From NCBI GenBank assembly GCA_013203545.1, contig JABMQA010000345.1, forward strand, positions 1 through 37,013: DNA of 37,013 nucleotides, read 5' to 3'. Positions 3,211-34,274 of this stretch are shown here, piece by piece. This DNA is from Bacteroidota bacterium. Lineage in GTDB: Bacteria > Bacteroidota > Bacteroidia > Bacteroidales > 4484-276. A model generated the notes under the pieces. The model was not told the origin of the DNA. It searched no databases and worked only from the letters and a program-made list of their open reading frames with translations. Positions within the stretch are counted from its first letter, which is position 1; each line of letters begins with the position of its first letter. The translations under genes and the position numbers were made by a program.

Positions 3211-3238
3211 GAAAAATTTCCAAAAAAGAAAATTATTC

Positions 3239-11219: not shown

Positions 11220-11231
11220 GATTTCTAATTT

Positions 11232-11510: not shown

Positions 11511-11620
11511 CCAAAGTAATTTATCTTTACTGTTAATGTATCTCTTTTACAAGCATTTTCCACCTCTTTGCTTTGCGATTATTTGCATTCTGGTTAAAGG
11601 TTCCATAACTTTTTTATTAG

Positions 11621-11971
11621 TTATTCTCCATTCTCCAGGCCTGTTTTTACACGGTATGCTTTTTCAACATCGGAAACGTAAATAATTCCGTCACCGTGAT
11701 TAAGTGTACACCCGTGTTCACAGATTAAACTTGTAATAGTATCAACATCAGCATCTTTTGCCACAATTTCAAGTTTAGCAATTTCACTATCAGTAATCGA
11801 AAATTTTTGTGATACAAAAGCTGTATCGTCCTGAAATTTCCCTGTGCCTTCGGCCATAGAAATAGTCATGTTGTCAAAACCTTCTTCTTTTAAGTGCTGA
11901 ATAATTTTATTCACTTTATTTGGTCGTATAAATGCTTTTATTTCTTTCATGATACTAATTTTAATGGTCAT
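11621..11971 (-). CDS. P-II (GlnB/GlnK-fold) family protein
   Basis: MKEIKAFIRPNKVNKIIQHLKEEGF...GDGIIYVSDVEKAYRVKTGLE is collinear with canonical P-II proteins. The likely true start is Met8 at 11950, 10 nt after the czcB stop, because the longer ORF overlaps czcB by 11 nt. Confidence 0.8.
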   Translation of the reverse strand: MTIKISIMKEIKAFIRPNKVNKIIQHLKEEGFDNMTISMAEGTGKFQDDTAFVSQKFSITDSEIAKLEIVAKDADVDTITSLICEHGCTLNHGDGIIYVSDVEKAYRVKTGLENGE

Positions 11972-19120: not shown

Positions 19121-19381
19121 TTAACAACATTTTATGGCTTGTTGAACCGGTGGGCATTTTACTGTCCCATAAGAACAATAGACGCAACAATCACCCTGCT
19201 TAGGTTTTAAGATAACAAGGCAATTTTCACATTCATAGAAAAACTGGCATGAATCCTCAGGCATGTTTTCTTCTTTCCGAATTCCGCAATTTGGACAGGT
19301 TAGAACTGATTTTAATTTAAAAAGAAAGGCCTGCCCTAATTGGCAGGCCGATCCCGTAAATAAATTAATGCTGATGCCCAT
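19121..19381 (-). CDS. GDCCVxC-domain small metal-binding protein (start uncertain)
   Basis: The C-terminal 60 aa read LTCPNCGIRKEENMPEDSCQFFYECENCLVILKPKQGDCCVYCSYGTVKCPPVQ. The track ORF (to 19483) overlaps the upstream HMA gene by 119 nt. The last in-frame ATG, at 19381, still overlaps by 17 nt and places a terminator-like hairpin inside the CDS. Confidence 0.65.
   Translation of the reverse strand: MGISINLFTGSACQLGQAFLFKLKSVLTCPNCGIRKEENMPEDSCQFFYECENCLVILKPKQGDCCVYCSYGTVKCPPVQQAIKCC
19312..19349 (-). terminator. Intrinsic-terminator-like hairpin after the HMA gene
   Basis: Perfect 8-bp GC-rich stem ggcctgcc/ggcaggcc (19328..19335 and 19342..19349) with a 6-nt loop. On the minus strand it is followed by TTTCTTTTT. 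It sits 16 nt downstream of the stop at 19365..19367. Confidence 0.4.
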
Positions 19382-19754
19382 CGTGGCCTTGTTCTTCTTT
19401 CTTATCATCACTTCTGTCGTACTGGCAGCAACCTGGCAGCGCATCATAAACTTTGTCTTCGGCTTGCGCTTTTTCGGTGTCATGGCCTACTTTGGCTATG
19501 GCCTTGTGAACGTCTAATAATTCCACGTCATCGGGATTGTATTTTACCGTGATCATTGTCGTTTCCTGGTCCCAGTCGGCAGATTCAACCCCATCAACCG
19601 ATTTTGCAGCTTTTTCGATGCGCTTTTCGCACATGCCGCAGTTGCCATACACTTTGAATTCTTCTGTTTTTGTAGTTTCCTTTTGTGCCTGAAGGTTACC
19701 AAAACCTGCCAGCACAATTGTGATTGCTAAAATTGACTTCATTAACTTTTTCAT
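19365..19754 (-). CDS. Periplasmic heavy-metal-associated (HMA) domain protein with His-rich tail
   Basis: 129 aa with signal peptide AGFGNLQAQ and an HMA motif, VYGNCGMCEKRIEKAAKSVDGV. It also carries LPGCCQYD and a C-terminal EEQGHDGHQH. Confidence 0.85.
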   Translation of the reverse strand: MKKLMKSILAITIVLAGFGNLQAQKETTKTEEFKVYGNCGMCEKRIEKAAKSVDGVESADWDQETTMITVKYNPDDVELLDVHKAIAKVGHDTEKAQAEDKVYDALPGCCQYDRSDDKKEEQGHDGHQH

Positions 19755-20373: not shown

Positions 20374-22806
20374 TTATTGAGTTCTTAATCGTAATGCATT
20401 CGAAATTACGGATACTGAGCTAAAGCTCATGGCAGCAGCTGCAATAATAGGACTGAGAAGGATTCCGAAAAACGGGAACAGAATCCCTGCCGCCAAAGGC
20501 ACTCCCAGGGCGTTGTAAACAAAGGCGAAGAATAGGTTTTGCTTAATGTTCCTCATCACTTTTCGGCTTAAATCCCTGGCCCGGACAATCCCATTCAGAT
20601 CGCCTTTCACCAGGGTGATTTCAGCGCTTTGCATGGCAATATCGGTACCAGTACCCATGGCAATCCCCACATTGGCTTGTTCGAGTGCCGGGGCATCATT
20701 TATTCCATCGCCTGCCATGGCAACTACGTGGCCTTGTTCCTGTAGTTCTTTCACCTTTTTATATTTGTCGTCTGGGAGGCAATCGGCCATAAAGCCATCC
20801 AGCCCCAGCTCATTGGCAACCACTTTGGCCGTTAATTGATTGTCGCCAGTTAGCATATGTACTTTCACACCCATTTTTTGCAGAGTTTTAATGGCATCGG
20901 ACGAGGTCTTCTTTATTTTGTCGGAAACACTTACAATACCCTCTATTTTATTTTTGATGATTAAAAACATGACCGTCTGACCTTTCAATTGCCATTCTTG
21001 AGTAAGGTTCTTCTGATCATCGGACAGGGAAGCCTGAAAATCGTTAATTAACCGGTGGTTTCCCAAACCGATTTTTCCACCTTCATAAACTGCCTGTACC
21101 CCTTTGCCGGTTACCGATTCAAATTTATCAAGCTTAAGAAGCTTCTGTTTATTGGCTTTTGCACCGGCCACGATGGCATCAGCCAGCGGATGTTCACTGT
21201 TTGCATCGACAGAAGCCGCCAGTTGCAGAATTTCCAGGTCACTTAGTCTCCCAAATGATTTGAATCCATTCAGGCTTGGTTTTCCTTCGGTGATGGTGCC
21301 GGTTTTATCAATAATGAGGATATCCACTTTATTCATTTCCTCGATGGCACGGGCATCTTTCACCAGTACGCCTGATTGGGCGCCCCGTGCTGTACCCACC
21401 ATAATCGACATGGGAGTCGCCAGTCCCAGGGCACAGGGGCAGGCAATAATTAATACGGCAACAGCATTAACAAAAGCATAAACATAAGCCGGTTCCGGTC
21501 CCCAGATCGCCCAAACGGCAAACGTAATAACCGCAACAGAAATAACAATCTGGACAAAATACTTTGCTACGGTATCGGCCAATTTTTGGATGGGGGCACG
21601 CGAACGGCTTGCCTTGTTTACCATTTCAATGATTTGCGCCAAAAGCGTATCACTGCCCACTTTTTCAGCCTTCATCTCAAACACTGTTTTGCCGTTAATT
21701 GTTCCCCCGGTCACCTTATCATTTTTTGCCTTCTCCACTGGAATAGGTTCACCGGAGATCATGCTTTCGTCAATTACTGCTTCCCCTTTAAAAATGATCC
21801 CGTCAACAGGAATTTTTTCCCCGGGCTTTACTTTTAGCAAGTCACCAACTTTTACTTCTTCCAATGGGATTTCAACTTCCTCGCCATTTCGGATGAGCCT
21901 GGCAATTGGGGGAACCAGCCCCAGCAAGGCTTTAATTGCTGAATTGGTTTTGCTGTGTGCGCGGAGTTCCAAAACCTGGCCGAGCAGCACCAGGGTTAAT
22001 ATCACAGCAGCCGCTTCAAAATAAATATGGACATTGCCACTTCCATCCTGAAACTGGGGTGGAAATATACCCGGCAATAAAAGGGCGACCACACTAAAAA
22101 TATAGGCAGCACCGACGCCAATGGATATTAATGTCCACATGTTTGGCGTCCAACGCACGATTGAGCTCCATCCCCTTCTGAAAAAATCCCAGCTTGAATA
22201 AAACAAAACCGGTGTAGCCAAAACAAACTCAATCCAATTCCATACTTTTTCCGGGGCAATTGATTCAGGATTTAAAAAGGGAATAAATTCTGACATCGCA
22301 ATAATCAAGACCGGCACTGCCAAAATAAGTGCAATCCAGAACTTTTTTGACATCTGTTTATAGGCTTTTTCTTCATCGCTCGTTTCTTCTCCTTTTTCAG
22401 GTACAAGGGTCATCCCGCATTTTGGACAGTCGCCCGGATGGTCTTGCCTGATTTCGGGGTGCATAGGGCAGGTATAAATAACTTTTGCCGAAGGTTTTAC
22501 ACTCTCTTCTTTCTTCAGGTCCATACCGCAAACAGGGCAGTCGCCTGGCTTATCGTAGGTTTTATCGCCCTCACAGTGCATGGGGCAGTAATATTCGCCT
22601 TTCACAGGATGACCTTCATGTTTTCGATGTGATGGTTCGTGCGTGCCAGTTTTATTACCACCGTGGTGATGATGATGCTTCTTCTTCTGTTGGGCCACTG
22701 TTATCAGGTGCATTTTGCATACCGGGCAGTCACCGGGTTTATCATAAGTTTTGTTGCCCTCACATTCCATGGGACAGTAATATTGTTCCTGTTTTTTATT
22801 GTCCAT
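20374..22806 (-). CDS. copA: Cu(I)-translocating P1B-1 ATPase (CopA-type) with three N-terminal HMBD-type Cys4 repeats
   Basis: 810 aa. Core motifs are SGEP, ACPCALGLATP, DKTGTIT, GDGINDAP, YNALGVPLAAG and MSFSSVSVISNALRL (Cu-type TM7/TM8 signatures). The N-terminus has 3x C-P-M-(H/E)...PGDCP-x-C-(G/K)-M plus an HHHHH tract. Confidence 0.95.
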   Translation of the reverse strand: MDNKKQEQYYCPMECEGNKTYDKPGDCPVCKMHLITVAQQKKKHHHHHGGNKTGTHEPSHRKHEGHPVKGEYYCPMHCEGDKTYDKPGDCPVCGMDLKKEESVKPSAKVIYTCPMHPEIRQDHPGDCPKCGMTLVPEKGEETSDEEKAYKQMSKKFWIALILAVPVLIIAMSEFIPFLNPESIAPEKVWNWIEFVLATPVLFYSSWDFFRRGWSSIVRWTPNMWTLISIGVGAAYIFSVVALLLPGIFPPQFQDGSGNVHIYFEAAAVILTLVLLGQVLELRAHSKTNSAIKALLGLVPPIARLIRNGEEVEIPLEEVKVGDLLKVKPGEKIPVDGIIFKGEAVIDESMISGEPIPVEKAKNDKVTGGTINGKTVFEMKAEKVGSDTLLAQIIEMVNKASRSRAPIQKLADTVAKYFVQIVISVAVITFAVWAIWGPEPAYVYAFVNAVAVLIIACPCALGLATPMSIMVGTARGAQSGVLVKDARAIEEMNKVDILIIDKTGTITEGKPSLNGFKSFGRLSDLEILQLAASVDANSEHPLADAIVAGAKANKQKLLKLDKFESVTGKGVQAVYEGGKIGLGNHRLINDFQASLSDDQKNLTQEWQLKGQTVMFLIIKNKIEGIVSVSDKIKKTSSDAIKTLQKMGVKVHMLTGDNQLTAKVVANELGLDGFMADCLPDDKYKKVKELQEQGHVVAMAGDGINDAPALEQANVGIAMGTGTDIAMQSAEITLVKGDLNGIVRARDLSRKVMRNIKQNLFFAFVYNALGVPLAAGILFPFFGILLSPIIAAAAMSFSSVSVISNALRLRTQ

Positions 22807-23135: not shown

Positions 23136-23522
23136 TTATAAGGTGGCAATAACCCTCTCGAGTTTTTCTTTTATTTCTGTGGCAATTCCTGCAAGGCCAG
23201 GGTTTTCAATTGCCATCATAGAGGCAGCCGGGTCTATAGCCGCAACTTCAATTTCATTGTTTTCCAATTCCTGAACGATTACGCTGCAAGGGAGCATAGT
23301 TCCAATCTTGTCTTCCTGCTGTAATGCTTTGTATGCATAAGCAGGATTACAGGCTCCCAGAATTTTGTATTTTCGGAAATCAACATTCAGTTTTTCTTTC
23401 AGTTTTTCCTGAATGTCTATTTCAGTAAGTACTCCAAACCCTTCTACTTTCAACGATTCGGTTACAAGCTGAACAGCTTGCTCAAAATCCATACTGATTT
23501 TTTTATTGAGGTAATATTTCAT
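23136..23522 (-). CDS. DUF302 domain protein
   Basis: 128 aa, a close paralog of 7053..7442 (GFGVLTEIDIQEKLKEKLNVDFRKYKILGACNPAYAYKAL...KIGTMLPCSVIVQ). Confidence 0.85.
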   Translation of the reverse strand: MKYYLNKKISMDFEQAVQLVTESLKVEGFGVLTEIDIQEKLKEKLNVDFRKYKILGACNPAYAYKALQQEDKIGTMLPCSVIVQELENNEIEVAAIDPAASMMAIENPGLAGIATEIKEKLERVIATL

Positions 23523-24107: not shown

Positions 24108-24115
24108 CAAAGGTA
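24108..24115 (-). promoter_or_regulatory. Candidate -7 promoter box (TACCTTTG) upstream of the Met-rich gene, abutting an imperfect palindrome at 24116..24130
   Basis: The minus strand reads CTGGTAAGCTTCCAG-TACCTTTG. TACCTTTG fits TAnnTTTG, ~70 nt upstream of the ATG at 24037. The plus strand also shows GGTAC-AAA-GGTAC direct repeats. Confidence 0.3.
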
Positions 24116-24177: not shown

Positions 24178-24789
24178 TTAGACATTATCAATTGATTTTA
24201 GTTTTTGATCTCCCAGCTTTTTAAAATATGAAGGCGTAAACCCGGTTATTCTTTTAAATTGGCCTGATAAGTGCGCCACACTGCTATAGCCCATGTCAAA
24301 TGCAATTTCGCTGAGTGTTTTTTCATCATAAACCAGCAGTTCTTTCACGCGTTCTATTTTCAGGTTGATCATATGCTTTTCTATTGTTGTGCCCTCCACC
24401 GAGGAATAAAGCGAGCTTAAGTAATTATAATCAAGAAGTAGCTTGTCAGAAAGATAGTCTGAGAAATTAACCTTAATTTGCTCCGGATGATGATATACAA
24501 ATTCGATTGTGATTTTTCTAATCTGCTCGATCAACCGGCTTTTACTATCATTAATGATCTCAAAACCTACTTTATTTAACCGGATTTCGAGGTTTTCATG
24601 TTTTTCCTGATCAATGGGTGTATCAATTATAACTTTTCCCATTTCCACCCGGGCATTTGCGATTCCCACATCACTGAATATTTCGGAGACCACCAGAATG
24701 CACCGGTTACATACCATGTTTTTAATGTAAATATGTTTTTGTTTATCCAGAGGGTGTGTTTTTTTCTTTTCCATGTCTATTCTTTTCAT
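24178..24789 (-). CDS. AraC-family regulator with N-terminal HMA-like CxxC domain
   Basis: 203 aa. The N-terminus reads IYIKNMVCNRCILVV...LNKVGFEI (HMA-like fold with C-x2-C). The C-terminal AraC HTH reads LSEIAFDMGYSSVAHLSGQFKRITGFTPSYF. The start overlaps the upstream stop (TAATG). Confidence 0.85.
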   Translation of the reverse strand: MKRIDMEKKKTHPLDKQKHIYIKNMVCNRCILVVSEIFSDVGIANARVEMGKVIIDTPIDQEKHENLEIRLNKVGFEIINDSKSRLIEQIRKITIEFVYHHPEQIKVNFSDYLSDKLLLDYNYLSSLYSSVEGTTIEKHMINLKIERVKELLVYDEKTLSEIAFDMGYSSVAHLSGQFKRITGFTPSYFKKLGDQKLKSIDNV

Positions 24790-25901
24790 TAGATTTTTTT
24801 ATTCATGTCTATAAGGAATTTCCGAACTGCCAGGGCTGCTTTCGCCCCTTCCCCGGACGCAATAATTATCCTTTTGCCAAATACATTGGTAACGTCGCCT
24901 GCAGCAAAAATACCCGGGTACGATGTGGAACAATCCTGATTAATAATTATTTCGCCTTTTTCATTTAAATCAACATATTTAAAAACCAAGGAAGTATCAG
25001 GACGGAGGCCAATGGCAACAAAAGCTCCTGAAACAGGCAATTTATTTGTTTCCTTATCACCTTTCTTTCGAATTTGGACTGCCGTTAAAATCTTATTTCC
25101 AATAAATTTTTCAACTTTATATTCCTCAAAAATTTCAAGGTTACTTAATGTCCTTATCCGTTCAATAATTATTGCATCTCCAGTAAGAATAGTATCTGAA
25201 ACAAGAAATACCTTTTTAGTAATTTTATGAAGATTTTCTACCATTTGCAGTGCGGAATTTCCCCCGCCTATGATAACCACATTTTTATTTTGGACGTACG
25301 ACATATCCTGAATGTTTCCGTAAAAAAGCCCTTTTCGTTGAAATTTTTCTTCTCCAGGCACATTCAGTTCCCGTCTCTTCATCCCACTCGCAATCAAAAT
25401 AGTCTTTGTGAAAAACTTTTTCCTTTTGGAGGTAATAACCATAAATCCTTTATTCTCAATTGGAATTATCAATTCAACCTCGCATAATAGATGATCGATA
25501 TAGTGTGAATTTAAAAGTTGATAATGAAACTTTTGTATTAATTCCGGGCCGGTAATAAAATCAAATCCCATGTAATTTTCAATTTTCGTGCTATCAATCG
25601 CCTGGCCACCGAGATTATCGGTAATTAAAAAAGCTTTCATCCGTAAAATTGAAGCATATACACAAGCTGTTAAGCCGGCTGGCCCACCGCCAATTATTAT
25701 TAAATCACTTGGTTCGGATTCATCAGATGCTGTATTTGATCTTTTGTTTTGAAATTTGTTTTTACACCCTTCAGAACAAAAATAAAACTCAGTTTCATCT
25801 AATTTTAAAACAATGGCATGCTCTTTATCGATTGCCATATTACAAATTGGATCAATTACTTTATTATTTCCTGGTTTCATTGGTCTGTGTTTTTCTAACA
25901 A
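24789..25901 (-). CDS. YHS-domain::thioredoxin-reductase-like FAD/NAD(P)H flavoprotein lacking the redox-active CxxC
   Basis: 370 aa. Residues 17-50 (DPICNMAID...EFYFCSEGCKNKF) form a YHS domain. The flavoprotein part has LIIIGGGPAGLTA (FAD), VVIIGGGNSALQ (NAD(P)H) and GIFAAGDV. The position of the TrxB CATC reads YGNIQD. Confidence 0.85.
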   Translation of the reverse strand: MLEKHRPMKPGNNKVIDPICNMAIDKEHAIVLKLDETEFYFCSEGCKNKFQNKRSNTASDESEPSDLIIIGGGPAGLTACVYASILRMKAFLITDNLGGQAIDSTKIENYMGFDFITGPELIQKFHYQLLNSHYIDHLLCEVELIIPIENKGFMVITSKRKKFFTKTILIASGMKRRELNVPGEEKFQRKGLFYGNIQDMSYVQNKNVVIIGGGNSALQMVENLHKITKKVFLVSDTILTGDAIIIERIRTLSNLEIFEEYKVEKFIGNKILTAVQIRKKGDKETNKLPVSGAFVAIGLRPDTSLVFKYVDLNEKGEIIINQDCSTSYPGIFAAGDVTNVFGKRIIIASGEGAKAALAVRKFLIDMNKKI

Positions 25902-25908
25902 TAGAAAT

Positions 25909-26184
25909 TTAATGTTTTCTCGCTGAAAGATTATAAATAGCTGCTATACTGGCTCCTATTATCCCACTTATAATGAAAGTCTCTGCTATTCCTATCATTG
26001 CTTCCCACCAGGGAATATTCATACGAATGATAGAAGATGTATCAAGCCCGTGCAACAGGTTGTTAAAAACCTGTACGGTTCCTTCGCGGCCTACGGTGGC
26101 CATTAGGATTATACATCCAAGGTAAAGAAGCGCGCCGGTTAAACCGAAGGCCAATCCAAAACGTTTAATGTTGATGGTTTTCAT
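25909..26184 (-). CDS. Small 2-3 TM membrane protein, DUF5676-like
   Basis: 91 aa (MKTINIKRFGLAFGLTGALLYLGCIILM...IGIAETFIISGIIGASIAAIY). Its start overlaps the upstream NDH-2-like stop by 20 nt. The family name is recalled, not verified. Confidence 0.6.
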   Translation of the reverse strand: MKTINIKRFGLAFGLTGALLYLGCIILMATVGREGTVQVFNNLLHGLDTSSIIRMNIPWWEAMIGIAETFIISGIIGASIAAIYNLSARKH

Positions 26185-27556
26185 GATTTTCTGTTTTTAA
26201 GGTTTTATTATCTGTATTTTTATGTTCATGGTTTTGTTCTTTATACCTGCGGATGATTACCCGGTCTCCTTTATCGTATGTGAAATAGCTCCACATCCAG
26301 TTAACTGCAATCACCAATTTATTTCGCATGCCCATAATACTCATCAGGTGAACAGCGGACCAGATAACCCAGGCAAAAAAACCAGCGAACTCCCTACCAT
26401 AAATACTGGCAACAGCTTTCTTTTTCCCAACTGCAGCAAGCGATCCTTTGTCGAGATAAATAAAGGGAATTAATGGTTCTCTTTGGATAAGCCTCAATAG
26501 GTTTTCAGCCAGGTTTTTGCCTTGTTGAATAGCAGGTTGTGCAACCATTGGATGACCATTAGGAAATGTTGTTGTTGGCATTTGTGCGACATCGCCAATG
26601 GCAAACACATTATCTATGGGTGAAACCCTGTTAAATTCATCAACTACAATACGTGATTGTTTATTAACTGCTGCCGAAGGAATTCCGTCGATAACAGCGC
26701 CCTTAACACCTGCAGTCCAAATAAAAGCTGCTGTTTCCAGCGTTTTCCCATTATTAAGTGTAACTGTTTTTCCATCGAACGATCTTACCAGGGTACTTAA
26801 TAAAACATCAACTTTCATTTTGGTGAGATAATGCAACGTTTTTTTCGATAATGTTTCAGGCATTCCTGAAAGAAGACGATCAGTTCCTTCTATCAAAAAA
26901 ATTTTCATCTCAACATTTTTCAGTTCCGGGTAATCTTTTCTGAAAATATATCTCTTGAACTCGGCCAATGCCCCGGCCATCTCAACACCTGCCGACCCAC
27001 CCCCAACAATAGCAACACTGCTCAGTATTTCTTTTTCTTCCTGAATACAGGTTATCGCCGCTTTTTCAAGGTTTTGAAGGAGTTTGCTCCTGATGTCCAG
27101 TGCATCTGTTACCGATTTTAACCTCAGTCCAAACCGTTCAAATCCACCATTTCCAAAAAAATTATTTGTGCTGCCGCCGGCAACCACCAGATAGTTATAG
27201 TCGATGTAACCAATACTGGTGTCAACCCTGTTATTATCGGTGTCAATACCGGTAACTTCGGCCATTCGGAAAATTACATTTTCATATTTTTCGAATATCT
27301 TCCTGAATGGGAAAACAATGCTGTCGGGTTCGGTGCCGCTGGTTGCAACCAGATAAAGCAATGGCAAAAATTGATGAAAATTGTTTTTATCAATCAACAC
27401 GACCTGAACAGGCTTATTTTTCAATACCTTAACCAGGTTTAAACCGGCAAATCCGCCTCCCACAACAACAATTCTGGGAAGATCAGAATCCGGCACACAG
27501 ATGTGCCCTTTTTCGAAACAGTTTATTTTATCGCAGCATTGCATTTCTTCAATCAA
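26165..27556 (-). CDS. Type II NADH:quinone oxidoreductase (NDH-2)-like flavoprotein with Cys-rich N-terminal and His-rich C-terminal extensions
   Basis: 463 aa with two dinucleotide folds (RIVVVGGGFAGL; VAIVGGGSAGVEMAG), IGDVA, and an NDH-2-type C-terminal amphipathic region (FFAWVIWSAVHLMSIMGMRNK). The N-terminus reads MIEEMQCCDKINCFEKGHICV and the C-terminus reads QNHEHKNTDNKTLKTENHENHQH. Confidence 0.88.
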   Translation of the reverse strand: MIEEMQCCDKINCFEKGHICVPDSDLPRIVVVGGGFAGLNLVKVLKNKPVQVVLIDKNNFHQFLPLLYLVATSGTEPDSIVFPFRKIFEKYENVIFRMAEVTGIDTDNNRVDTSIGYIDYNYLVVAGGSTNNFFGNGGFERFGLRLKSVTDALDIRSKLLQNLEKAAITCIQEEKEILSSVAIVGGGSAGVEMAGALAEFKRYIFRKDYPELKNVEMKIFLIEGTDRLLSGMPETLSKKTLHYLTKMKVDVLLSTLVRSFDGKTVTLNNGKTLETAAFIWTAGVKGAVIDGIPSAAVNKQSRIVVDEFNRVSPIDNVFAIGDVAQMPTTTFPNGHPMVAQPAIQQGKNLAENLLRLIQREPLIPFIYLDKGSLAAVGKKKAVASIYGREFAGFFAWVIWSAVHLMSIMGMRNKLVIAVNWMWSYFTYDKGDRVIIRRYKEQNHEHKNTDNKTLKTENHENHQH

Positions 27557-27580
27557 TAGATTCTGTAATTAAAAAATAAG

Positions 27581-27922
27581 TTAAATAGCCAATATCCCAC
27601 TCTCGTCAGTTCTCACCTTATACACTTCATCCACGGGGGAAATAATAATCATCCCGTCGCCCCGGTAACCCGTGCGGCCGTTTTTCCTGATAATTTCAAT
27701 TATGCTGGAAACATGTTCCTCAGCTACAAGGATCTCCAGTTTAATTACCCTGTATGCATCTGCAAAGGGATATTTGTCACTAATGTGGTCTTTTTCATGA
27801 TCAGAGTACTGGCCGGTGCCTTCGCATTCCACCATGGTCATACAACAGAAGCCGTTTTCTTTTAATGCTTTATAGACTTCATCAATTTTTCTGTGCCTGA
27901 TGTAAGCTTTTATCAGTTTCAT
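27581..27922 (-). CDS. P-II (GlnB/GlnK-fold) family protein, paralog of 11621..11971
   Basis: 113 aa. MKLIKAYIRHRKIDEVYKALKENGF...GDGMIIISPVDEVYKVRTDE is collinear with P-II. The T-loop region is replaced by the His/Asp-rich GTGQYSDHEKDHISDKYPFADAY. Confidence 0.8.
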   Translation of the reverse strand: MKLIKAYIRHRKIDEVYKALKENGFCCMTMVECEGTGQYSDHEKDHISDKYPFADAYRVIKLEILVAEEHVSSIIEIIRKNGRTGYRGDGMIIISPVDEVYKVRTDESGILAI

Positions 27923-27937
27923 GATATGCTGTTTTTT

Positions 27938-28195
27938 TTAAACTGCAATATGAAGTGCAGCCAGGTTTATGTCTTGTTTCAAAGGAAATCCGATATCTTT
28001 TAAATCTGATTTAAATGATTCAAGGTTGAATAACTTTGGGTTAAATTCCACATACAAATTCTCCGCTTCAACGCACATACTGATCATGCCTTTCGATTTC
28101 AATAAATGTTTAAGATGAACTTTAAAAGCATCTTGTTCGATTTTTGTGAGAATTAGCTGTGTGTTCATTACTTCCAGTTTAAATGTATTTTTCAT
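27938..28195 (-). CDS. Small hypothetical protein, CxxC-less HMA-like fold (inferred)
   Basis: 85 aa. GMISMCVEAENLYVEFNPKLFNLESFKSDLKDIGFPL aligns by eye with 28469..28792 and with the C-terminus of 6502..7014. It sits tightly packed in the operon. Confidence 0.5.
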   Translation of the reverse strand: MKNTFKLEVMNTQLILTKIEQDAFKVHLKHLLKSKGMISMCVEAENLYVEFNPKLFNLESFKSDLKDIGFPLKQDINLAALHIAV

Positions 28196-28231
28196 TGTTT
28201 CTAATATTTAATGATTTGTAATTTATTTCTG

Positions 28232-28441
28232 TTATTTCAGTGCCGGTTTTTCTTTGCAGTCGATAATCGCTTTAACCTTACAGTGGCCACATACCGAACT
28301 GTCAGATTCATTCTTTTCATCGAGATGGCATGAGGGCATGTTAATTTCATCTTCCTCACCAAAAAGCAGTTTTAAACTCATTGCTAAAACCAAAAAACCA
28401 GTTGAAACGATCGTTATAATTATTAGGCCTATCCAATTCAT
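28232..28441 (-). CDS. Mini membrane protein with Cys-rich tail
   Basis: 69 aa with one N-terminal TM (IGLIIITIVSTGFLVLAMSL), followed by SCHLDEKNESDSSVCGHCKVKAIIDC (4 Cys and 2 His). Confidence 0.5.
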   Translation of the reverse strand: MNWIGLIIITIVSTGFLVLAMSLKLLFGEEDEINMPSCHLDEKNESDSSVCGHCKVKAIIDCKEKPALK

Positions 28442-28468
28442 GTCTTTATTTATTTAATGGCTAAAAAA

Positions 28469-28792
28469 TTAATGTTTAACAGTAGAGCAGCATTTTGGAG
28501 GTTTTCCACCAAATGCCTTGTTGTTTTCTTGTCCAAGTTTCAAAATGAACTTCTGCCAGACCCCCTGGTTTTTTTGCATCGGTGCGAAAGGGAATCCGGC
28601 CTTTACTAAAGCGTCTTTTACCATATCAGGAGACAGTAACTGTTGATAGTACTCAATCATTACAGAATCTTCTTCAACGTTAAATGATGTTACCCCACTT
28701 AAGCCGGTTAGTCCTAACATAACCTTTATGATCTCATTCTGGCTAAGTAAATGCCCCGGATTGAATTTTTCGATTGAAGTCGGTATATCCAT
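28469..28792 (-). CDS. Small hypothetical protein, CxxC-less HMA-like fold with C-terminal KCCS motif
   Basis: 107 aa with GVTSFNVEEDSVMIEYYQQLLSPDMVKDALVKAGFPF, the beta-alpha-beta pattern of the second half of an HMA domain. The tail reads GGKPPKCCSTVKH. Confidence 0.5.
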   Translation of the reverse strand: MDIPTSIEKFNPGHLLSQNEIIKVMLGLTGLSGVTSFNVEEDSVMIEYYQQLLSPDMVKDALVKAGFPFAPMQKNQGVWQKFILKLGQENNKAFGGKPPKCCSTVKH

Positions 28793-28817
28793 AATTTATT
28801 TTTTTTAAATCATTAGT

Positions 28818-29348
28818 TTAATAGTTGTCGAAACCATAAATTTCTATATGGCTTTTGCTTTTGAAACCCATATTTTCTGTTTTATAAACAAGTAATTTGT
28901 TATTCCCATTAACCGACAATAACCTGTATTCATTCGTCTGAGGAATTTTCAGAAGAAAATTCCCATTTTCATCAATAACATTTACGGTAAATATCTGTTT
29001 GGAAAAGAAATCGGAAATCTCTTCGGTCGGATAAATTCTCTGGGGATAACACCTAAAAACTATATAAAGCTGATTTTCATTTTCTATAGAAGCAGTATTG
29101 ATAATGGCTATGCCATCAATGAAATGACCTTTTGGAATAAGTAGGTCGATTGATCTCCAAAGTGAATTATCAGCATTAAAGACTAAAAGTTTTTTCTTTT
29201 CCGGATCAACTTTGTAAAATTTTAGTGTTCCGTCTTTTAGTTGAAAAATGTTCATGTTTGCATCCAGCTTGCCCTCATACGAAATTTGAGCAAATCCAAT
29301 TGCAACACTAAATAGTAAGATTTGTGTGATTATCAGAAATTTTTTCAT
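28818..29348 (-). CDS. Secreted hypothetical beta-rich protein
   Basis: 176 aa with signal LLFSVAIGFAQ and no recognisable motif. It is the first gene after the 144-nt gap that follows the HYC_CC_PP-like gene. Confidence 0.6.
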   Translation of the reverse strand: MKKFLIITQILLFSVAIGFAQISYEGKLDANMNIFQLKDGTLKFYKVDPEKKKLLVFNADNSLWRSIDLLIPKGHFIDGIAIINTASIENENQLYIVFRCYPQRIYPTEEISDFFSKQIFTVNVIDENGNFLLKIPQTNEYRLLSVNGNNKLLVYKTENMGFKSKSHIEIYGFDNY

Positions 29349-29492: not shown

Positions 29493-29867
29493 CTATAAGA
29501 GGTATGACTGTATTTTCGCAAGGAATAAATGTGTCCCAGGCGGCGGTGATGGATCAGTTATAATGTTTGCAGGTAAATAAAAATTAGCGTATTCGTTTAC
29601 CAGTTCTTTGTTTAATGTTCCAAATAAGTCGAGATCGGAAATGCTGAGTTCACCAGCTACCGGCTTTGTGAAATCAACCTTAAAAATAACAAGCATATTA
29701 TCATCGTGGCAGCATTCGTTTTCCATATCGTTGCAGCACGGTTCGGTGGGTAAATCAATAGAAACTGCAACAAGCTTGTCGCCGCAATAATGCCTGGATA
29801 TATTAAAACCGACCGTTGTCAGGATCAACAGGGCCGAGAGTATGATATATCCAATTTTTCTAAACAT
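29493..29867 (-). CDS. HYC_CC_PP-like small membrane-anchored Cys-rich protein
   Basis: 124 aa with an N-terminal TM. The eponymous motifs appear in order: RHYCG, EPCC/ECCHDD and PSPPPG. Confidence 0.7.
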   Translation of the reverse strand: MFRKIGYIILSALLILTTVGFNISRHYCGDKLVAVSIDLPTEPCCNDMENECCHDDNMLVIFKVDFTKPVAGELSISDLDLFGTLNKELVNEYANFYLPANIITDPSPPPGTHLFLAKIQSYLL

Positions 29868-29901
29868 AACTTTTAATTTCTTTTACAAAATTACAACAAG
29901 G

Positions 29902-30528
29902 TTACTGTAAATCTGTTACAAAATCCTGGAATTGATTTACATTATTTTTGGTTTTCAGCAATTTATCCAGCCCAAGCCGTTTATTTTTCTGAATCTTTTT
30001 AAAATGTGTCGGCGTCAGACCGGTAATTTTTTTGAATTGATTCGACAGGTACTGGACACTACTATAGTCTAATTGAATTGCGATTTCGCTCAACGACAAT
30101 TCATCGTAGACCAAAAGTTCTTTTGCCCTTTCAATTTTTTGCAGAATCAAATATTTCTCAATTGTTATTCCTTCAGTGGATGAGAACAGGCTACTGATGT
30201 AAGAATAATCGTTTCCAACTTGACGAGATAAAAAGTCCGAAAAATTAATGTTCTCACGTACCCCAACACCATAGTGAACTGCCTTTATGATTTCAGTCTT
30301 GATCTTGGAGATTATTCTGCTTTTTTTATCACTCAGTAATTCAAATCCATTAGCCTCAAGACTGAGTTTAATTGAATCGAGATCTTTTTCATCAATTGTT
30401 GAACCCAATTCTACTTTGCCCAATTCAATTGATTTAATGGTAAACCCCAGCTTTGTCAATTCCTCGTTTACAACTTTTATACACCGATTGCAAACCATAT
30501 TTTTAATATGTAATTCTTCATATGACAT
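29902..30528 (-). CDS. AraC-family regulator with N-terminal HMA-like CxxC domain (paralog of 24178..24789)
   Basis: 208 aa with LHIKNMVCNRCIKVV...LEANGFEL and an AraC HTH (LSEIAIQLDYSSVQYLSNQFKKITGLTPTHF). Confidence 0.85.
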   Translation of the reverse strand: MSYEELHIKNMVCNRCIKVVNEELTKLGFTIKSIELGKVELGSTIDEKDLDSIKLSLEANGFELLSDKKSRIISKIKTEIIKAVHYGVGVRENINFSDFLSRQVGNDYSYISSLFSSTEGITIEKYLILQKIERAKELLVYDELSLSEIAIQLDYSSVQYLSNQFKKITGLTPTHFKKIQKNKRLGLDKLLKTKNNVNQFQDFVTDLQ

Positions 30529-30547: not shown

Positions 30548-32269
30548 TTATTCTTTGATAATCTTTTTAGTATAGGTCTTGTTAGCTGAGAATAGACTAA
30601 GGATAAAAGTTCCCTGGCCTAAGGTCGTAAGGTCAATCAGTATCTGCTTATTATTTATTTCAAATCGTCGCTCAATAAGTTTATGTCCGGCCAGATCGTA
30701 GAATTTGTACCCTTCAAAAACGATGTCGTCGCTGGTAACTGTTAAGGTATTATTGCTCTCCATTAACGGATTTGGATACAAAATAATGTCGTCTGGATCA
30801 AGGTTATTCTCCCCAATTCCAATTGTCTCATCAACCACTTCAAACTGCCCCATCATGCCGTCGTCTTCGTGGGTGAGCATATGGCAATGGTACATGTAAG
30901 GTACATCATCGTTGGCATAATCGGTAAATTGCATGATCACCCTTGCCGATTGCATTGCCGGTACCAGGATCACATCTTTCCTGCCCTGCTCGCTTGCAGG
31001 CGGTGGCGCTCCATTTCTATCCAAAACATAAAAATGAACATCATGAATGTGAAAAGGATGGGCAGTTGGCGATTGATTGGTAAGTGTCCAAATTTCAATG
31101 TTGTTCAAAGGAATTGAATAATTAATGGTGTTCATATCAAAGCTGACACTATTGATATAGAATTTCCCATTCAATGCATTCGGGCCCATTGCCTCGGCTG
31201 TAAAAGTCAGTGTTCTTGTGATATTGGCTGAAGATTCGGGCAGGGAGTTTATTTCGACAAGGCTGCTTGGAATGGTGGTAACCGGATTGCTGGTGGGTGC
31301 AACCACATTTAATTCCATAATATCGAAATTTGATCCGTTCATCGGATTTGGATTGTAACCTGTAAGGGTCATCATCGACATCATACCGGGCAAGGTTGCG
31401 CCATACATTCCGTTTGGCAACTCAGCAGCATAGCTTTTCAGGTTCAGTGTTTGCCCCTGCATTCCTGAAAAATCAATAAGTATTTCAGCCCGTTCGCCCG
31501 GGGCCATCCGTGACCTTGTAACAGCATTGGGTTCGCTTAATAATCCATCGTCCGAACCAATTTGATAAAAAGTCTGGTTGCCGGATAAGCCAATATTAAA
31601 TACCCGTTGAGAGGAACCATTCAACAGCCTCAAACGAACAACCTGGGCCGGCACATCAAGTTTAGGATCGATGGTGGCGTTTACCATTAACACATCGTCA
31701 GAATTGGAAGGGACAACAATCTGGTTGGAAGCATCAAAATCTTTGGTTTGGATAACCAGGGGGAAATCATCAACACCGTAAGTCCTGGGCAATTCCAATG
31801 CCGCTTCATCTTCATCTCGTACTATGATAAAACCGGCAATCCCTTTGGAGACATGTAAATTGGTTTTTTCATGCAAATGGGGATGATACCAGTAGGTAGC
31901 TGCCCTGTCCATCACAGTAAAGGAAGGGTTCCACGAGTTGGAAGGCGCGATGATAGTGTGTGGGCCGCCATCATTTTCGGCTGAAACGTGCATTCCATGC
32001 CAGTGAATTGTAGTGGTGTCATTAAGTAGGTTATTTACTGTGATGTCAACAAATTCAGCTTTTTGCATGATCAGTGTGGGGCCGAGAATATTGCCGTTTA
32101 CACCCATTGTGTTTGTGGCCTGGCCACCATAAAATTGGACAGTCCCATTTTGAAGGTTAAGTTCAAAAGTTGTTCCCGACAGGGTATCTGGAATGATTAT
32201 ATCATTCTGCGCTGTCAGATACGTAAAAAAGAAAATTGATACAAGTGTCATTAATGTTTTACTTTTCAT
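30548..32269 (-). CDS. Multicopper oxidase with T9SS C-terminal sorting domain
   Basis: 573 aa with signal peptide FFFTYLTAQ. The four MCO copper motifs are IHWHGMH, WYHPHLH, HPFHIHDVHF and HCHMLTHEDDGMM. The last ~80 aa (ILYPNPLMESNNTLTV...GTFILSLFSANKTYTKKIIKE) fit the Por-secretion-tail pattern. Confidence 0.93.
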   Translation of the reverse strand: MKSKTLMTLVSIFFFTYLTAQNDIIIPDTLSGTTFELNLQNGTVQFYGGQATNTMGVNGNILGPTLIMQKAEFVDITVNNLLNDTTTIHWHGMHVSAENDGGPHTIIAPSNSWNPSFTVMDRAATYWYHPHLHEKTNLHVSKGIAGFIIVRDEDEAALELPRTYGVDDFPLVIQTKDFDASNQIVVPSNSDDVLMVNATIDPKLDVPAQVVRLRLLNGSSQRVFNIGLSGNQTFYQIGSDDGLLSEPNAVTRSRMAPGERAEILIDFSGMQGQTLNLKSYAAELPNGMYGATLPGMMSMMTLTGYNPNPMNGSNFDIMELNVVAPTSNPVTTIPSSLVEINSLPESSANITRTLTFTAEAMGPNALNGKFYINSVSFDMNTINYSIPLNNIEIWTLTNQSPTAHPFHIHDVHFYVLDRNGAPPPASEQGRKDVILVPAMQSARVIMQFTDYANDDVPYMYHCHMLTHEDDGMMGQFEVVDETIGIGENNLDPDDIILYPNPLMESNNTLTVTSDDIVFEGYKFYDLAGHKLIERRFEINNKQILIDLTTLGQGTFILSLFSANKTYTKKIIKE

Positions 32270-32471
32270 GTCTATAGTTTTGAAATTAATAATTCGTTAT
32301 TTATTCTCCCCGAGCCTGTCGTACAAACAACATCCCGGCAAATCGTAATAAATATCATCCGGAGAACGATTGTTTTAGGTATCATATCCCACGGCAACTT
32401 CTGCTTTTTCAACTCAAACTCACTGATTTCACCTTTTACTTATTCAATTCAAAATTATGCAGTATAATCGG

Positions 32472-34262
32472 TTAATAATTCAGTGTTTCTCTCGTTTCAC
32501 CACATTTCAGCATGGCATCACCGAAATAGGGATTCTCGATGTTTTTCTTTTCGCTGAGCCAATAAGCTCCTTTGGTGCTGAAAGCCATGGGGCAATATTG
32601 GTAATAGACAGTTTCATCCTGTAAGCCAAAGGCTTTTATGCTTTTGTGAAAGGTAAGGTTGAGTATGGAAAATTCTCTTCGCTGCGTTTCAATATCTGTG
32701 CTACCTGAGATTGAACCTAACGTTGAATTAAACACCTCCAACTGCTCCATCCAAGCCATGTGGGCATCTCCTTTCAAAAGATTCATATCCACCTTGTTTA
32801 ATGCTTCGATTACCTCTTTCGCGTCGCTACTCACTTGTTTCGCGTTGGAGGCAACAAAAGCATTTTTCATTATCAGGTATTTTTGATACACCTGCGTCAG
32901 TTGTTTTTTAAAAGCTTCATTCACCTCAAAACCCTGCTTCATGTTATCCTTGACATCCATTTGCGACATTTCCGCATTGCTCATGGTTTGTCCTCCATGA
33001 TTGTGTCCGGTCATGGCCGGGCCACCCCCGGGATTCATCATGCTCGGTTTTCCTGCAAGTTGGGCGGCGGCATCGATACTGAAGGTGCCGTTTACAGCTA
33101 TTTCTTCGCCTGCATCGAGGCCATTTTCTACAATAAAGCTATCGCCCAGGGCCTGGCCCAAGGTCACTTCCCGCATCAAAAAGCTTACCCCCTGATTGGT
33201 GGTAGATTTAATATAAACCAGGGAACGTTTTCCGGTCCACATCACAGCCGTTTTGGGCACAACAATACTTTCCGCTTTATCAGCTAATTTCGCTTCAATC
33301 GTTCCCGAGACAAACATTTCAGGTTTCAGTTTTAATCCTTTATTGTTAACTTCCACCCTTGCTTTAGCCACCCGTGTTTTCGGATCGATGACCAGGTCGA
33401 TGAAGGAAATTTCCCCTGTAAATTTTTCACCCGGAAGTGAAGCGACAGTAAACGAAACCTTGTCGCCCTTTTCTATCCAGGGCATATCCGATTCATATAC
33501 ATCAAACATTACCCAAACTTTTGAAAGATCGGCGATTTCCAAAATGGCTTCTCCCCGCCTGATATAGTCCCCAAGGTTTACCATTTTTTTTATCACATAG
33601 CCCGAAACATCCGCCGTAATCGGGAACTGTTCCCGTATTTTACCTGCATTAATCATTTCATCAATCTCAGCATCTGTCAGTTTCCAGTTTTTCAGCTTCT
33701 CCCTGGCAGCTTTGTACAGTGCCGGTTGGCTTTCTTTTAATTTCATTGCTTCCATCAACTCTTCCTGTGCAGTTGAAAGATCAGGTGAATAAATCCATGC
33801 TATTGTCTGGCCTTTCTTTACATATTCACCGGTGAAGTTGACCGCCAGTTTTTCTATCCGTCCGGGGATATGGGATGATTGTGAATAAACGTGCCGTTCG
33901 TCTGCTTCTATTTTTCCATTCAACCTGACTGATTTTAAAGGTATTGCCATACCGACTTTTGCTGTTGATACACTGGCCAGTTTCATCGCATTTGCCGACA
34001 TACTCACGGCCATTGGATTGGCCTCCCCCGCATCATTTTCCAACGGAATCAAATCCATCCCGCAAATGGGGCAGTCTCCGGGCTCGTTTTTCCGGATTTG
34101 AGGGTGCATTGAGCATGTCCAAATTTGATCTGTTGATACTTCGGTGTGCTGCCCGTGATCATTGCCTTCAGAATCTTGTTTTACCGAATTGCTAATGAGG
34201 TAGCCTGCAAAGCCACCAACAAGGAGCAAAACTATATAAATGCCAATTTTTTTAATTTTCAT
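32472..34262 (-). CDS. cusB: RND efflux periplasmic adaptor (CusB-like) with N-terminal HMBD and C-terminal DUF3347-like domain
   Basis: 596 aa with an N-terminal TM, then WTCSMHPQIRKNEPGDCPICGMDL (HMBD). The MFP core includes GRIEKLAVNFTGEYVKKGQTIAWIYS and the barrel-sandwich/beta-barrel blocks. The C-terminal ~150 aa end YYQYCPMAFSTKGAYWLSEKKNIENPYFGDAMLKCGE. Confidence 0.9.
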   Translation of the reverse strand: MKIKKIGIYIVLLLVGGFAGYLISNSVKQDSEGNDHGQHTEVSTDQIWTCSMHPQIRKNEPGDCPICGMDLIPLENDAGEANPMAVSMSANAMKLASVSTAKVGMAIPLKSVRLNGKIEADERHVYSQSSHIPGRIEKLAVNFTGEYVKKGQTIAWIYSPDLSTAQEELMEAMKLKESQPALYKAAREKLKNWKLTDAEIDEMINAGKIREQFPITADVSGYVIKKMVNLGDYIRRGEAILEIADLSKVWVMFDVYESDMPWIEKGDKVSFTVASLPGEKFTGEISFIDLVIDPKTRVAKARVEVNNKGLKLKPEMFVSGTIEAKLADKAESIVVPKTAVMWTGKRSLVYIKSTTNQGVSFLMREVTLGQALGDSFIVENGLDAGEEIAVNGTFSIDAAAQLAGKPSMMNPGGGPAMTGHNHGGQTMSNAEMSQMDVKDNMKQGFEVNEAFKKQLTQVYQKYLIMKNAFVASNAKQVSSDAKEVIEALNKVDMNLLKGDAHMAWMEQLEVFNSTLGSISGSTDIETQRREFSILNLTFHKSIKAFGLQDETVYYQYCPMAFSTKGAYWLSEKKNIENPYFGDAMLKCGETRETLNY

Positions 34263-34274
34263 TTTAATTCGTTT

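Follow-up and report, generated by a model that had tools for sequence, protein, structure and literature searches.

A mosaic of recurring accessory gene modules with two flavoproteins in a Bacteroidota copper island

The subject of this study is a block of nine genes at positions 24178-29348, minus strand, of a 37,013-nucleotide (nt) stretch of DNA from a Bacteroidota bacterium (contig JABMQA010000345.1 of assembly GCA_013203545.1), and this whole 37-kb stretch is called the window below. The block encodes two flavoproteins, one a paralogue of the NADH dehydrogenase NDH-2 and the other a YHS domain joined to a thioredoxin reductase (TrxR)-fold protein, along with a P-II-family protein, an AraC-family regulator and several small proteins. 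It had been predicted earlier to be a single, undescribed metal redox-detoxification system. Comparison with about 100 other loci gives good support to a different view, that the block is a compacted, lineage-specific chain of recurring, reshuffled modules and not a fixed nine-gene machine, its nearest relatives being Draconibacterium and Lentimicrobiaceae. As an explanation of the whole we lean modestly towards mosaic accessory modules that provide copper-gated redox support; the more specific proposal, that NADH drives a copper-gated redox support of copper export on the cytoplasmic side of the membrane, is tentative and is held with more doubt than belief. The type of island in which the block lies is already known, its accessory redox and sensing set is uncharacterised, and, as the original prediction had said, no characterised system with this gene set was found in the literature searched.

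Results and discussion

The nine genes and their distribution in other loci

The nine open reading frames (ORFs) are consecutive on the minus strand, and the coordinates first given for them agree with the mechanical ORF list. They are listed below in the order of transcription, with the ATG starts favoured by homologues for g6 and g8 (as called, these two span 26165-27556 and 24789-25901).

g1, 28818-29348, minus strand: secreted protein of all-beta type from a small orphan family in which His75 and Cys100 are invariant
g2, 28469-28792, minus strand: HMA-like protein that lacks CxxC and continues in a helix, with a CC pair of LDCC type at the C terminus (NCBIfam NF040898, 42 bits against a cut-off of 30)
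g3, 28232-28441, minus strand: peptide with a single transmembrane (TM) segment and four Cys, C38, C51, C54 and C62, invariant in the alignment
g4, 27938-28195, minus strand: 85-residue, tail-less relative of g2 (weak pairwise match) with one near-invariant Cys
g5, 27581-27922, minus strand: P-II family member of a Bacteroidota island clade (PF00543, 68.4 bits against a cut-off of 25)
g6, 26165-27544, minus strand: NDH-2 paralogue (Pyr_redox_2 and NDH2_C) with an N-terminal MQCCDKINCFEKGHICVP motif
His-rich C-terminal tail of g6, 26165-26255, minus strand: relic of a separate small two-TM His-rich gene
g7, 25909-26184, minus strand: DUF5676 two-TM membrane protein (PF18926, 78.6 bits)
g8, 24789-25880, minus strand: YHS/TRASH domain plus TrxR-fold flavoprotein without the redox CxxC (YHS spacing Cys-x21-Cys-x3-Cys; GNIQD)
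g9, 24178-24789, minus strand: AraC-family regulator (HTH_18, HTH_AraC) with an N-terminal HMA-like MVCxxC domain in which C27 and C30 are invariant

When the presence and absence of these genes were tabulated across the related loci (numbered with the prefix L), none of the roughly 100 others was found to hold all nine, so the set is not co-conserved. Gene order and content vary among the islands, and g1 and g4 are rare. Three modules can be recognised: a first one of the Cys4 single-TM peptide, the P-II variant and the NDH-2 with its Cys motif, found only in copper islands of Bacteroidota and Chlorobi; a second of DUF5676, the YHS-flavoprotein and the AraC regulator with its HMA-like domain (HMA-AraC); and a third in which the secreted beta-rich protein is paired with the HMA-like/LDCC protein. 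The locus closest to the window, L082, preserves the relative order of most of the genes, although genes for a multicopper oxidase and for DUF3347 intervene. The GC content at third codon positions (GC3) runs across the block from 0.29 in g8 and 0.30 in g1 up to 0.47 in g5, a spread that fits a patchwork origin. A mosaic origin is indicated by three things together, namely the presence/absence table, the GC3 spread and the fusion by which g6 acquired its tail (below).

These data bear directly on the idea that the nine genes form one dedicated, obligate metal redox-detoxification system in which the two flavoproteins and the mini-proteins would carry electrons from NAD(P)H to a metal, for instance by Cu(II)/Cu(I) cycling. 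Such a system would suit the tight same-strand packing and the lack of any internal terminator-like hairpin and of any promoter motif from g1 to g9; moreover, all nine genes have homologues somewhere in related copper islands, and L082 retains most of them in order. However, even in L082 the set is broken by the genes just named, g4 is found in only one other island and there in a different position, the g1 family has 7 members, the two flavoproteins occur separately, and the His-rich 'tag' of one of them is a fusion relic. The comparative sequence data thus contradict an obligate nine-gene system, and we regard it as improbable.

The YHS-flavoprotein

Profile search and alignment bear out the first description of g8 as a YHS domain joined to a TrxR-like core without the redox CxxC, the core having GNIQ in place of the CATC of TrxR. 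Its best 120 database matches are 58-86% identical, 119 of them carry both YHS and Pyr_redox_2, and their hosts include Bacteroidales, Nitrospirota/Thermodesulfovibrionia, Planctomycetota and others; the protein is about 60% identical from Nitrospirota to Bacteroidota, in a family of thousands of database members. In an alignment of 61 sequences GNIQD is invariant at the position of CATCD, with Gly188, Gln191 and Asp192 invariant, and of the three cysteines of the YHS domain C35 and C39 are invariant and C13 is kept in at least 90%. The spacings of these cysteines, 21 and 3 residues, agree with the YHS/TRASH pattern Cys-x19-22-Cys-x3-Cys; the Pfam YHS score is 26.8 bits against a cut-off of 30.3. 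The AlphaFold2 (AF2) model of g8, with a predicted local distance difference test score (pLDDT) of 85.7, has AhpF and TrxR as its top Foldseek matches (E about 1e-30), which points to a TrxR fold of two domains that includes the motifs for FAD and NAD(P)H, and the nearest solved relatives are the C-terminal module of AhpF (1hyu, E 1.4e-46) and the low-Mr TrxRs. Because Ser228-Asp229 occupy the position of the His-Arg-Arg of NADPH enzymes, g8 is predicted to prefer NADH.

Two more familiar identities were considered and rejected. A true TrxR or AhpF is excluded by the lack of CxxC and by the scores against the NCBIfam equivalogs (TRX_reduct, 237.7 bits against 343.45; AhpF, 235.5 against 502.9). 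As for MerA, g8 scores 59.8 bits and g6 29.1 bits against a cut-off of 454, and neither has the core of the class-I enzymes with its CxxxxC and C-terminal pair of cysteines.

The surroundings of the YHS-flavoprotein were read from a GTDB scan anchored on it, with one genome per species, which gave 80 loci at 55-69% identity, mostly from Nitrospirota/Thermodesulfovibrionia and Thermodesulfobacteriota with a few from Bacteroidales. A CopA-like tblastn match lies no more than 10 kb from the flavoprotein gene in 61 of these 80 species genomes, and the same kind of search found NDH-2, the AraC regulator and g2 in two loci each and g3 in a single locus, but neither g1 nor g4 in any. By de novo clustering of ORFs, a full-length P1B ATPase was found within -6 to +7 kb in 53 loci, 58 of the 66 copies being co-directional with the flavoprotein gene; a small HMA-like CxxC protein is encoded directly upstream of it in 12 loci and DUF5676-like ORFs occur in 29, and g2-like genes stand directly downstream of it in two loci of Thermodesulfobacteriota. 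Other recurrent neighbours are histidine kinases, DUF5676-like two-TM proteins, His-rich one-TM peptides, stand-alone YHS, SHOCT, Met-rich, P-II and LDCC proteins. Iterated searches with hidden Markov models seeded with NDH-2, the AraC regulator or a 157-residue ORF drifted into generic Rossmann and HMA matches and were not used.

The order typical of Nitrospirota loci (L030, 9116-14868; also L007 and L035) is SHOCT, a P-II protein of 100 residues with a short T-loop, an HMA-like CxxC protein, the YHS-flavoprotein, an unrelated SRPBCC-like gene, CopA and a Met-rich protein. Judged by its gene order, this arrangement is a cross-phylum core around the YHS-flavoprotein.

The NDH-2 paralogue and the P-II protein beside it

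The assignment of g6 to the NDH-2-type flavoproteins holds, with scores of 160 bits for Pyr_redox_2, 48.6 for Pyr_redox and 36.5 for NDH2_C (PF22366, cut-off 27.7). Both GxGxxG motifs are present (VVGGGFAG and IVGGGSAG), the nearest solved structure is the NDH-2 9mqy (E 1e-63, aligned over residues 18-431), and the protein carries AQPAIQQG (AQxAxQ), which we take to be the quinone-site motif. The N-terminal tag, first described as having five Cys and one His, in fact has four Cys and one His; the four cysteines lie within the first 16 residues as C-C-x4-C-x6-C, and the rest of the protein has a single internal Cys (AAITCIQ). Of the 119 top NDH-2 homologues whose Rossmann start could be located, 82 have an N-terminal Cys motif, which is either MQCC-x3-NC-x6-ICVP or the shorter C-x6-7-[ILV]C[VIL]P, and these 82 are proteins of Bacteroidota and 'Chlorobi' at 53-85% identity. 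One public NDH-2 gene call skips the Cys motif by starting at an internal GTG.

Ten independent contexts of the NDH-2 gene were read, namely the window, L002, L082/83, L084, L085-87, L093/94, L095, L096, L097 and L099; they came from exact-protein look-ups, the metagenome scan having given only 5 distant loci, and the look-up of a Marinilabilia NDH-2 (P0141) gave no match. The Cys-tagged NDH-2 is in a copper island in nine of the ten. Immediately upstream of it in seven is a gene for a P-II protein of 113 residues that is 73-84% identical to g5, the distance being 11-32 nt in L002, L082/83, L084, L085-87, L095 and L099, and this pair is usually preceded by a g3-like Cys4 peptide, as it is in L082-L087 where g3 homologues stand just upstream. 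Six of the ten also have the YHS-flavoprotein gene no more than a few genes downstream; the two flavoprotein genes are adjacent or nearly so in the window, L002, L096, L097 and L099, directly in L096 and L097 and with one SHOCT gene between them in L099.

One context differs in kind. In L097 (GCA_021648725.1, 6766-11689) a bare cassette of NDH-2, YHS-flavoprotein and AraC genes has genes for a tyrosine integrase, an HTH_17 protein and a DUF3987/Toprim primase as neighbours, which hints that this cassette may move on an integrative element; there is no CopA or Cus within 10 kb. Two identical NDH-2 proteins, P0142 (L085-L087) and P0237 (L093-L094), occur in 39 and 53 assembly-collection blocks, respectively, and the places shown for them are JGI and ENA metagenome assemblies, TARA ocean samples included; such a spread would reflect either very abundant hosts or a mobile island.

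The His-rich tail of g6, which had been read as a second metal tag, is absent from all other NDH-2 homologues. A separate two-TM gene lies between NDH-2 and DUF5676 in L082 (83 residues, 11346-11597) and in L002 (75 residues, 1868-2095), and the His-rich 3' ends of these small genes (ending in NHEQHQH and TENHE) align with the g6 tail. In L082 the small gene overlaps the DUF5676 start by 20 nt, exactly as the g6 tail does in the window. From the homologous 3' ends and the identical overlap it follows that an in-frame deletion fused the tail onto NDH-2. A functional His-rich tag is therefore ruled out, the tail being the 3' end of a neighbouring gene.

The P-II fold proposed for g5 is confirmed by its match to PF00543 and by 2eg1, which it matches over its full length (E 1e-17). 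Its scores against the GlnB and GlnK equivalogs, 56 and 51 bits, lie far below the cut-offs of 202 and 181. The clade conserves Cys26, Cys27, Cys33, His42 and His46 and has a near-invariant T-loop, GTGQYSDHEKxHISxKYPFADAY; Tyr51 is kept and Lys90 is replaced by Met. In all 14 island P-II proteins that were aligned, GDG is followed by M, V, L, I or A, so that the ATP-binding Lys90 of GDGKIF is lost. A second P-II gene in the window (11621-11971, minus strand), about 40% identical to g5 and likewise with a hydrophobic residue for Lys90, overlaps the start of CzcB by 11 nt; its position directly upstream of CzcB is the arrangement described for PII-NG, a P-II group which, in the passage of PMC7726332 that cites Sant'Anna 2009, is linked to czc genes and proposed to consist of metal sensors.

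What the two flavoproteins may do

The original prediction of two metal-tagged flavoproteins stands in part: both clades are tied to copper islands, by the 61 of 80 genomes in the one case and the nine of ten contexts in the other, and it is the His-rich tag that falls away. Nearly every product of the block has conserved Cys/His ligand motifs. The tentative proposal that best joins these observations runs as follows. The HMA-AraC regulator would sense cytoplasmic Cu(I) through its MVCxxC motif and switch the unit on. The NDH-2 paralogue, which has no Fe-S clusters, would then continue to oxidise NADH and to reduce quinone, possibly also Cu(II), while copper poisons Fe-S enzymes, and its Cys motif, the Cys4 peptide and the Cys/His-rich P-II protein would serve as metal-dependent regulators or ligand sites. 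The YHS-flavoprotein, predicted to prefer NADH, would receive a metal ion from the HMA-like carriers on the three-Cys YHS arm and would either reduce it at the flavin or be switched on by it, acting in the latter case as a copper-activated reductase of another acceptor. CopA and Cus would export Cu(I) last.

Several observations weigh against this proposal. The internal CxxC of the E. coli type, the proposed Cu(I) site, is absent from g6, and in L097 the Cys motif of NDH-2 is degenerate with one Cys left. Each flavoprotein also occurs without the other, the YHS-flavoprotein in L003, L039 and L098 and NDH-2 in L084-87 and L093-95. Co-transcription of the genes is inferred from gene spacing, the positions of promoter motifs and the absence of terminator-like hairpins. 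Nitrospirota/Thermodesulfovibrionia and Thermodesulfobacteriota are mostly anaerobes, and since the YHS-flavoprotein is commonest in such lineages, where Cu(II) is expected to be scarce, the role of a Cu(II) reductase is weakened.

The main competing account does away with enzymatic metal reduction. The island NDH-2 would be an Fe-S-free, copper-insensitive respiratory bypass that replaces the Fe-S NADH dehydrogenases under copper stress, the P-II protein would tune it to the energy status, and the Cys motif and small proteins would be regulatory; the YHS-flavoprotein would have an unrelated copper-activated role, for example as a ferredoxin/flavodoxin reductase or an NADH oxidase-type reductase, with a regulatory YHS domain. 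This suits anaerobic hosts better than Cu(II) reduction does, and it agrees with g6 having every hallmark of NDH-2 and nothing like a catalytic metal site near the flavin, with ferredoxin-NADP reductases being the CxxC-less TrxR-fold enzymes among the matches in the Protein Data Bank (PDB), and with the N-terminal YHS domains borne by CopA proteins in the same loci. It leaves unexplained, however, why the NDH-2 and YHS-flavoprotein genes are so often neighbours (L096, L097, L099) and why the NDH-2 clade keeps a multi-Cys N-terminus, and the reliance of the hosts on Fe-S NADH dehydrogenases is an unsupported assumption. We consider this account rather unlikely.

It could also be held that these are ordinary housekeeping genes with no tie to metals that hitch-hike between cus and cop on a mobile element. 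The mosaic gene content and heterogeneous GC3 would be expected in that case, as would the L097 cassette of NDH-2, YHS-flavoprotein and AraC genes by an integrase, which has neither CopA nor Cus within 10 kb. The linkage of the YHS-flavoprotein to CopA extends, however, over several phyla in the 61 of 80 genomes, the NDH-2 clade is found in copper islands in all but one of its ten contexts, nearly every protein has conserved Cys/His metal-ligand motifs, and there is a dedicated regulator with an HMA-like domain, so that hitch-hiking appears very improbable.

Copper-gated redox support by mosaic modules is the explanation that we modestly favour. In its furthest-reaching form, which we think unlikely, it would amount to an undescribed NADH-driven redox branch of copper homeostasis in Bacteroidota and Chlorobi and, by way of the YHS-flavoprotein, in Nitrospirota and Thermodesulfobacteriota; the P-II protein would sense Cu(I) and not nitrogen and would directly gate NDH-2, and the YHS::TrxR protein would be the first dedicated cytoplasmic metal reductase of its fold, fed by CxxC-less HMA/LDCC carriers.

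The transcription unit

The spacings first given for the nine genes as called are exact: the first five junctions are gaps of 25, 27, 36, 15 and 24 nt, g6 and g7 overlap by 20 nt, g7 and g8 are 7 nt apart, and g8 and g9 share 1 nt at TAATG. The ATG at 25880 is favoured as the start of g8 by its homologues and by the database record, and an exact-protein look-up of g8 with the TTG start gave no match, the ATG form being needed; for g6, the NDH-2 homologues favour the ATG at 27544 (MQCC). With these two starts the g7-g8 gap becomes 28 nt and the g5-g6 gap 36 nt. Around the block lie the following features.

29902-30528, minus strand: paralogous HMA-AraC regulator, about 46-47% identical to g9, with an AraC helix-turn-helix (HTH)
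29886-29893, minus strand: Bacteroidetes-type -7 promoter motif TAnnTTTG, TAATTTTG, 26 nt upstream of u1; candidate promoter of the unit
29493-29867, minus strand: u1, Cys-rich membrane protein of the HYC_CC_PP family (NCBIfam NF047658, 52 bits against a cut-off of 28)
24108-24115, minus strand: -7-type motif TACCTTTG, upstream of the Met-rich gene and just past g9; likely 3' boundary of the unit

A sigma-70 promoter scan found 28 sites where 30 were expected from shuffled sequence, and since it was uninformative and its model is not appropriate for Bacteroidota, the TAnnTTTG motif was used instead. The window has 20 minus-strand copies of TAnnTTTG, of which 5 are in intergenic DNA, which makes up 5.8% of the bases. 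None lies between g1 and g9 and none in the 144-nt gap ahead of g1, and no terminator-like hairpin was found on the minus strand within the block. As the sole nearby copy at the 5' end is that at 29893, upstream of 29493-29867, the unit may begin one gene earlier than g1, and u1 is possibly its true first gene; taken most simply, these positions suggest a unit of ten genes between about 29893 and about 24150.

The five intergenic copies of TAnnTTTG on the minus strand are at 32457, 29893, 24115, 18663 and 4127, so that the motif is enriched in intergenic DNA. The copies ahead of 29867 and 18621 share the extended form TTGTTGTAnTTTTG, and both of these precede Cys-rich genes of HYC_CC_PP/DUF6660 type, each after a regulator gene. 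When the larger gaps between genes were searched for a shared operator, only this promoter-like TTGTTGTAnTTTTG at the two sites came up, and no convincing AraC box. No Rfam family and no tRNA was found anywhere in the window, and a megablast of the block against plasmids gave no match.

Small proteins and regulators

Profile searches found no family for g1, g3 or g4. The AF2 model of g1 is poor (pLDDT 65) and has no significant fold match in the PDB, so g1 is an orphan; only 7 close relatives of it were found, and relatives at about 30% identity are paired with a g2-like gene in L082, L084, L086 and L087. As predicted, g2 is HMA-like without CxxC, and its tail proved to be the NCBIfam mini-domain named 'LDCC motif putative metal-binding'; the CC pair is invariant in the family, which matches an HMA-like profile by hhalign (probability 94%, E 1.5e-7). 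The g4 family has 21 representatives among 1.84 billion proteins, and because one of them (P0257) carries an LECC tail, g4 is linked to g2 and is, by this resemblance, a rare extra copy of the g2 type. The assignment of g7 to DUF5676 (PF18926) also stands.

Both g9 and the product of 29902-30528 are HMA-AraC regulators, as had been proposed, with an AraC HTH and N-termini that match the HMA-like profile (hhalign 91%) and keep an invariant MVCxxC. The profile was built from proteins of neighbouring loci, g4 being tied to it only through g2, and the Pfam HMA family (PF00403) gave no match at E up to 0.1 in g2, g4 or the AraC N-termini. Neither g2 nor g4 has the GMxCxxC site, while in the AraC N-termini an invariant M-x-C-x-x-C is retained. 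Nothing on DUF5676, YHS-TrxR fusions or HMA-AraC regulators was found in the literature searched.

The surrounding island

The whole window is one same-strand metal island, all its sensible ORFs of at least 90 residues being on the minus strand, and both CusCBA and CzcCBA are encoded in it. Pfam matches and translations confirm that the block lies inside a Cu(I)/Ag(I) export island, with the cus and multicopper-oxidase genes on one side and the Met-rich and CopA genes on the other, the two flanking pieces being the following.

30548-36955, minus strand: multicopper oxidase with a type IX secretion system (T9SS) sorting tail, and CusB, CusC and CusA, by Pfam (CusA is cut by the window end)
20374-22806, minus strand: CopA, a P1B-1 Cu(I)/Ag(I) ATPase with CPC, YN and MSFSS motifs and three HMBD repeats

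From the Cus end the order is CusA/CusC/CusB/multicopper oxidase, HMA-AraC, HYC_CC_PP, the nine genes, Met-rich, DUF302, SHOCT and CopA. Beyond CopA come HMA and GDCCVxC proteins, then a Fur-like regulator and DUF6660, followed by a CzcA to which an outer-membrane-factor domain is fused, by CzcB and by the second P-II protein. Farther on are an SPFH protein and a second P1B ATPase, and also further DUF302 proteins and a cation diffusion facilitator (CDF) transporter. CopA relatives in related islands are 73-79% identical; CPC in TM6, YN in TM7 and MxxSS in TM8 are presumably the marks of Cu(I)/Ag(I) P1B-1 pumps. The N-terminus of CopA has three CPMH/C-x-G-DCP-x-C 'HMBD' copies and a His run, KKKHHHHHGG, and no classical HMA domains, and many CopA proteins in the Nitrospirota loci start with a YHS domain instead.

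Other genes of the window deserve a record. A 1446-residue ORF at 13317-17657 (minus strand) has a complete pump of the AcrB/CzcA type in the resistance-nodulation-division (RND) family (residues 5-1032) and a C-terminal OEP domain (about 1296-1445), and looks like a fusion of RND pump and outer-membrane factor. A member of the GDCCVxC-domain '(seleno)protein' family (103 bits) overlaps the preceding ORF, that of an HMA protein, by 119 nt (ORFs 19121-19483 and 19365-19754, minus strand), and its true start probably lies downstream of the mechanical call. A pair of SPFH/Band-7 and small DUF4379 treble-clef proteins in the window (10344-11510, minus strand), in L086 (5440-6649) and in L099 (6047-7280) seems to be another conserved accessory module that recurs in several related copper islands. 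Three DUF302 paralogues are present (23136-23522, 7053-7442 and 5278-5739, minus strand), and DUF302 recurs beside SHOCT and CopA in related islands too. Four ORFs of 241-404 residues at 91-4096 (minus strand) have no Pfam family, one of them having a weak fimbrial-like NCBIfam match (E 6e-5), and may mark the edge of the metal island.

Significance and comparison with known systems

Copper islands are well understood as regards efflux pumps and oxidases, and what has stayed unsettled since the reports of a cupric reductase activity of E. coli NDH-2 is the role of cytoplasmic redox enzymes. The two flavoprotein families offer clean and cheap test cases for flavoenzymes in copper homeostasis, the YHS-flavoprotein gene being physically tied to copA and the NDH-2 clade being essentially restricted to copper islands and having a conserved Cys motif. 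If the P-II variant, in which Lys90 has been lost and Cys and His residues have been acquired, does bind copper, the reach of P-II signalling would widen to metals. There is also a warning here for annotation, since these proteins should not be named thioredoxin reductase, AhpF, nitrogen regulator or respiratory NDH-2.

The NDH-2 of E. coli is reported to reduce Cu(II) and to influence tolerance of copper, and an internal CxxC has been proposed as its Cu(I) site (PMC1847454); the passages of that paper that cite Rapisarda 1999/2002 and Rodriguez-Montelongo 2006 describe it as an NADH-linked Cu(II) reductase. Like this enzyme, g6 is a single-subunit membrane flavoprotein with two Rossmann motifs, an NDH2_C anchor and the quinone motif. 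Unlike it, g6 has no internal CxxC, has the N-terminal C-C-x4-C-x6-C and is encoded in a copper island beside a P-II variant, and its activity is a prediction. MerA resembles g8 in being a pyridine-nucleotide flavoprotein of a metal-resistance cluster with an N-terminal metal-binding domain (a predicted one in g8) on a flexible linker; MerA, however, belongs to the class-I disulfide reductases and has a CxxxxC active site, a C-terminal Cys pair and an HMA domain, whereas g8 has the TrxR-type fold, no redox disulfide and a YHS domain. AhpF, TrxR and the TrxR-like ferredoxin-NADP reductases are the best matches of g8 in sequence and fold, and AhpF shares with it an appended N-terminal domain that contains Cys, but in g8 CATC has given way to an invariant GNIQ, the appended domain is of the YHS/TRASH and not the thioredoxin-like kind, and the scores lie below the equivalog cut-offs.

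With PII-NG and CutA1, g5 shares the P-II fold, a place in a heavy-metal cluster and a proposed role as metal sensor; it lies beside NDH-2 and not czc, and appears to differ from PII-NG in its clade-specific Cys/His pattern and in its longer T-loop. Like the CopZ-type HMA chaperones, g2 and the AraC N-termini, and g4 by way of g2, appear HMA-like by profile, and the AraC N-terminus keeps the CxxC; unlike CopZ, g2 and g4 lack it, and g2 has a C-terminal CC to use instead. The regulator differs from CueR, CsoR and CopY in being an HMA-AraC fusion, of which no characterised example was found in the literature searched. The island as a whole has what the classical cus/cop/pco islands have, namely CusCBA, a multicopper oxidase, a P1B-1 CopA and Met-rich periplasmic proteins, all on one strand, and what places it outside the proteobacterial paradigms is the P-II variant, the NDH-2 paralogue, the YHS-flavoprotein, DUF5676, the LDCC and Cys4 peptides, SHOCT, DUF302 and the HMA-AraC regulator.

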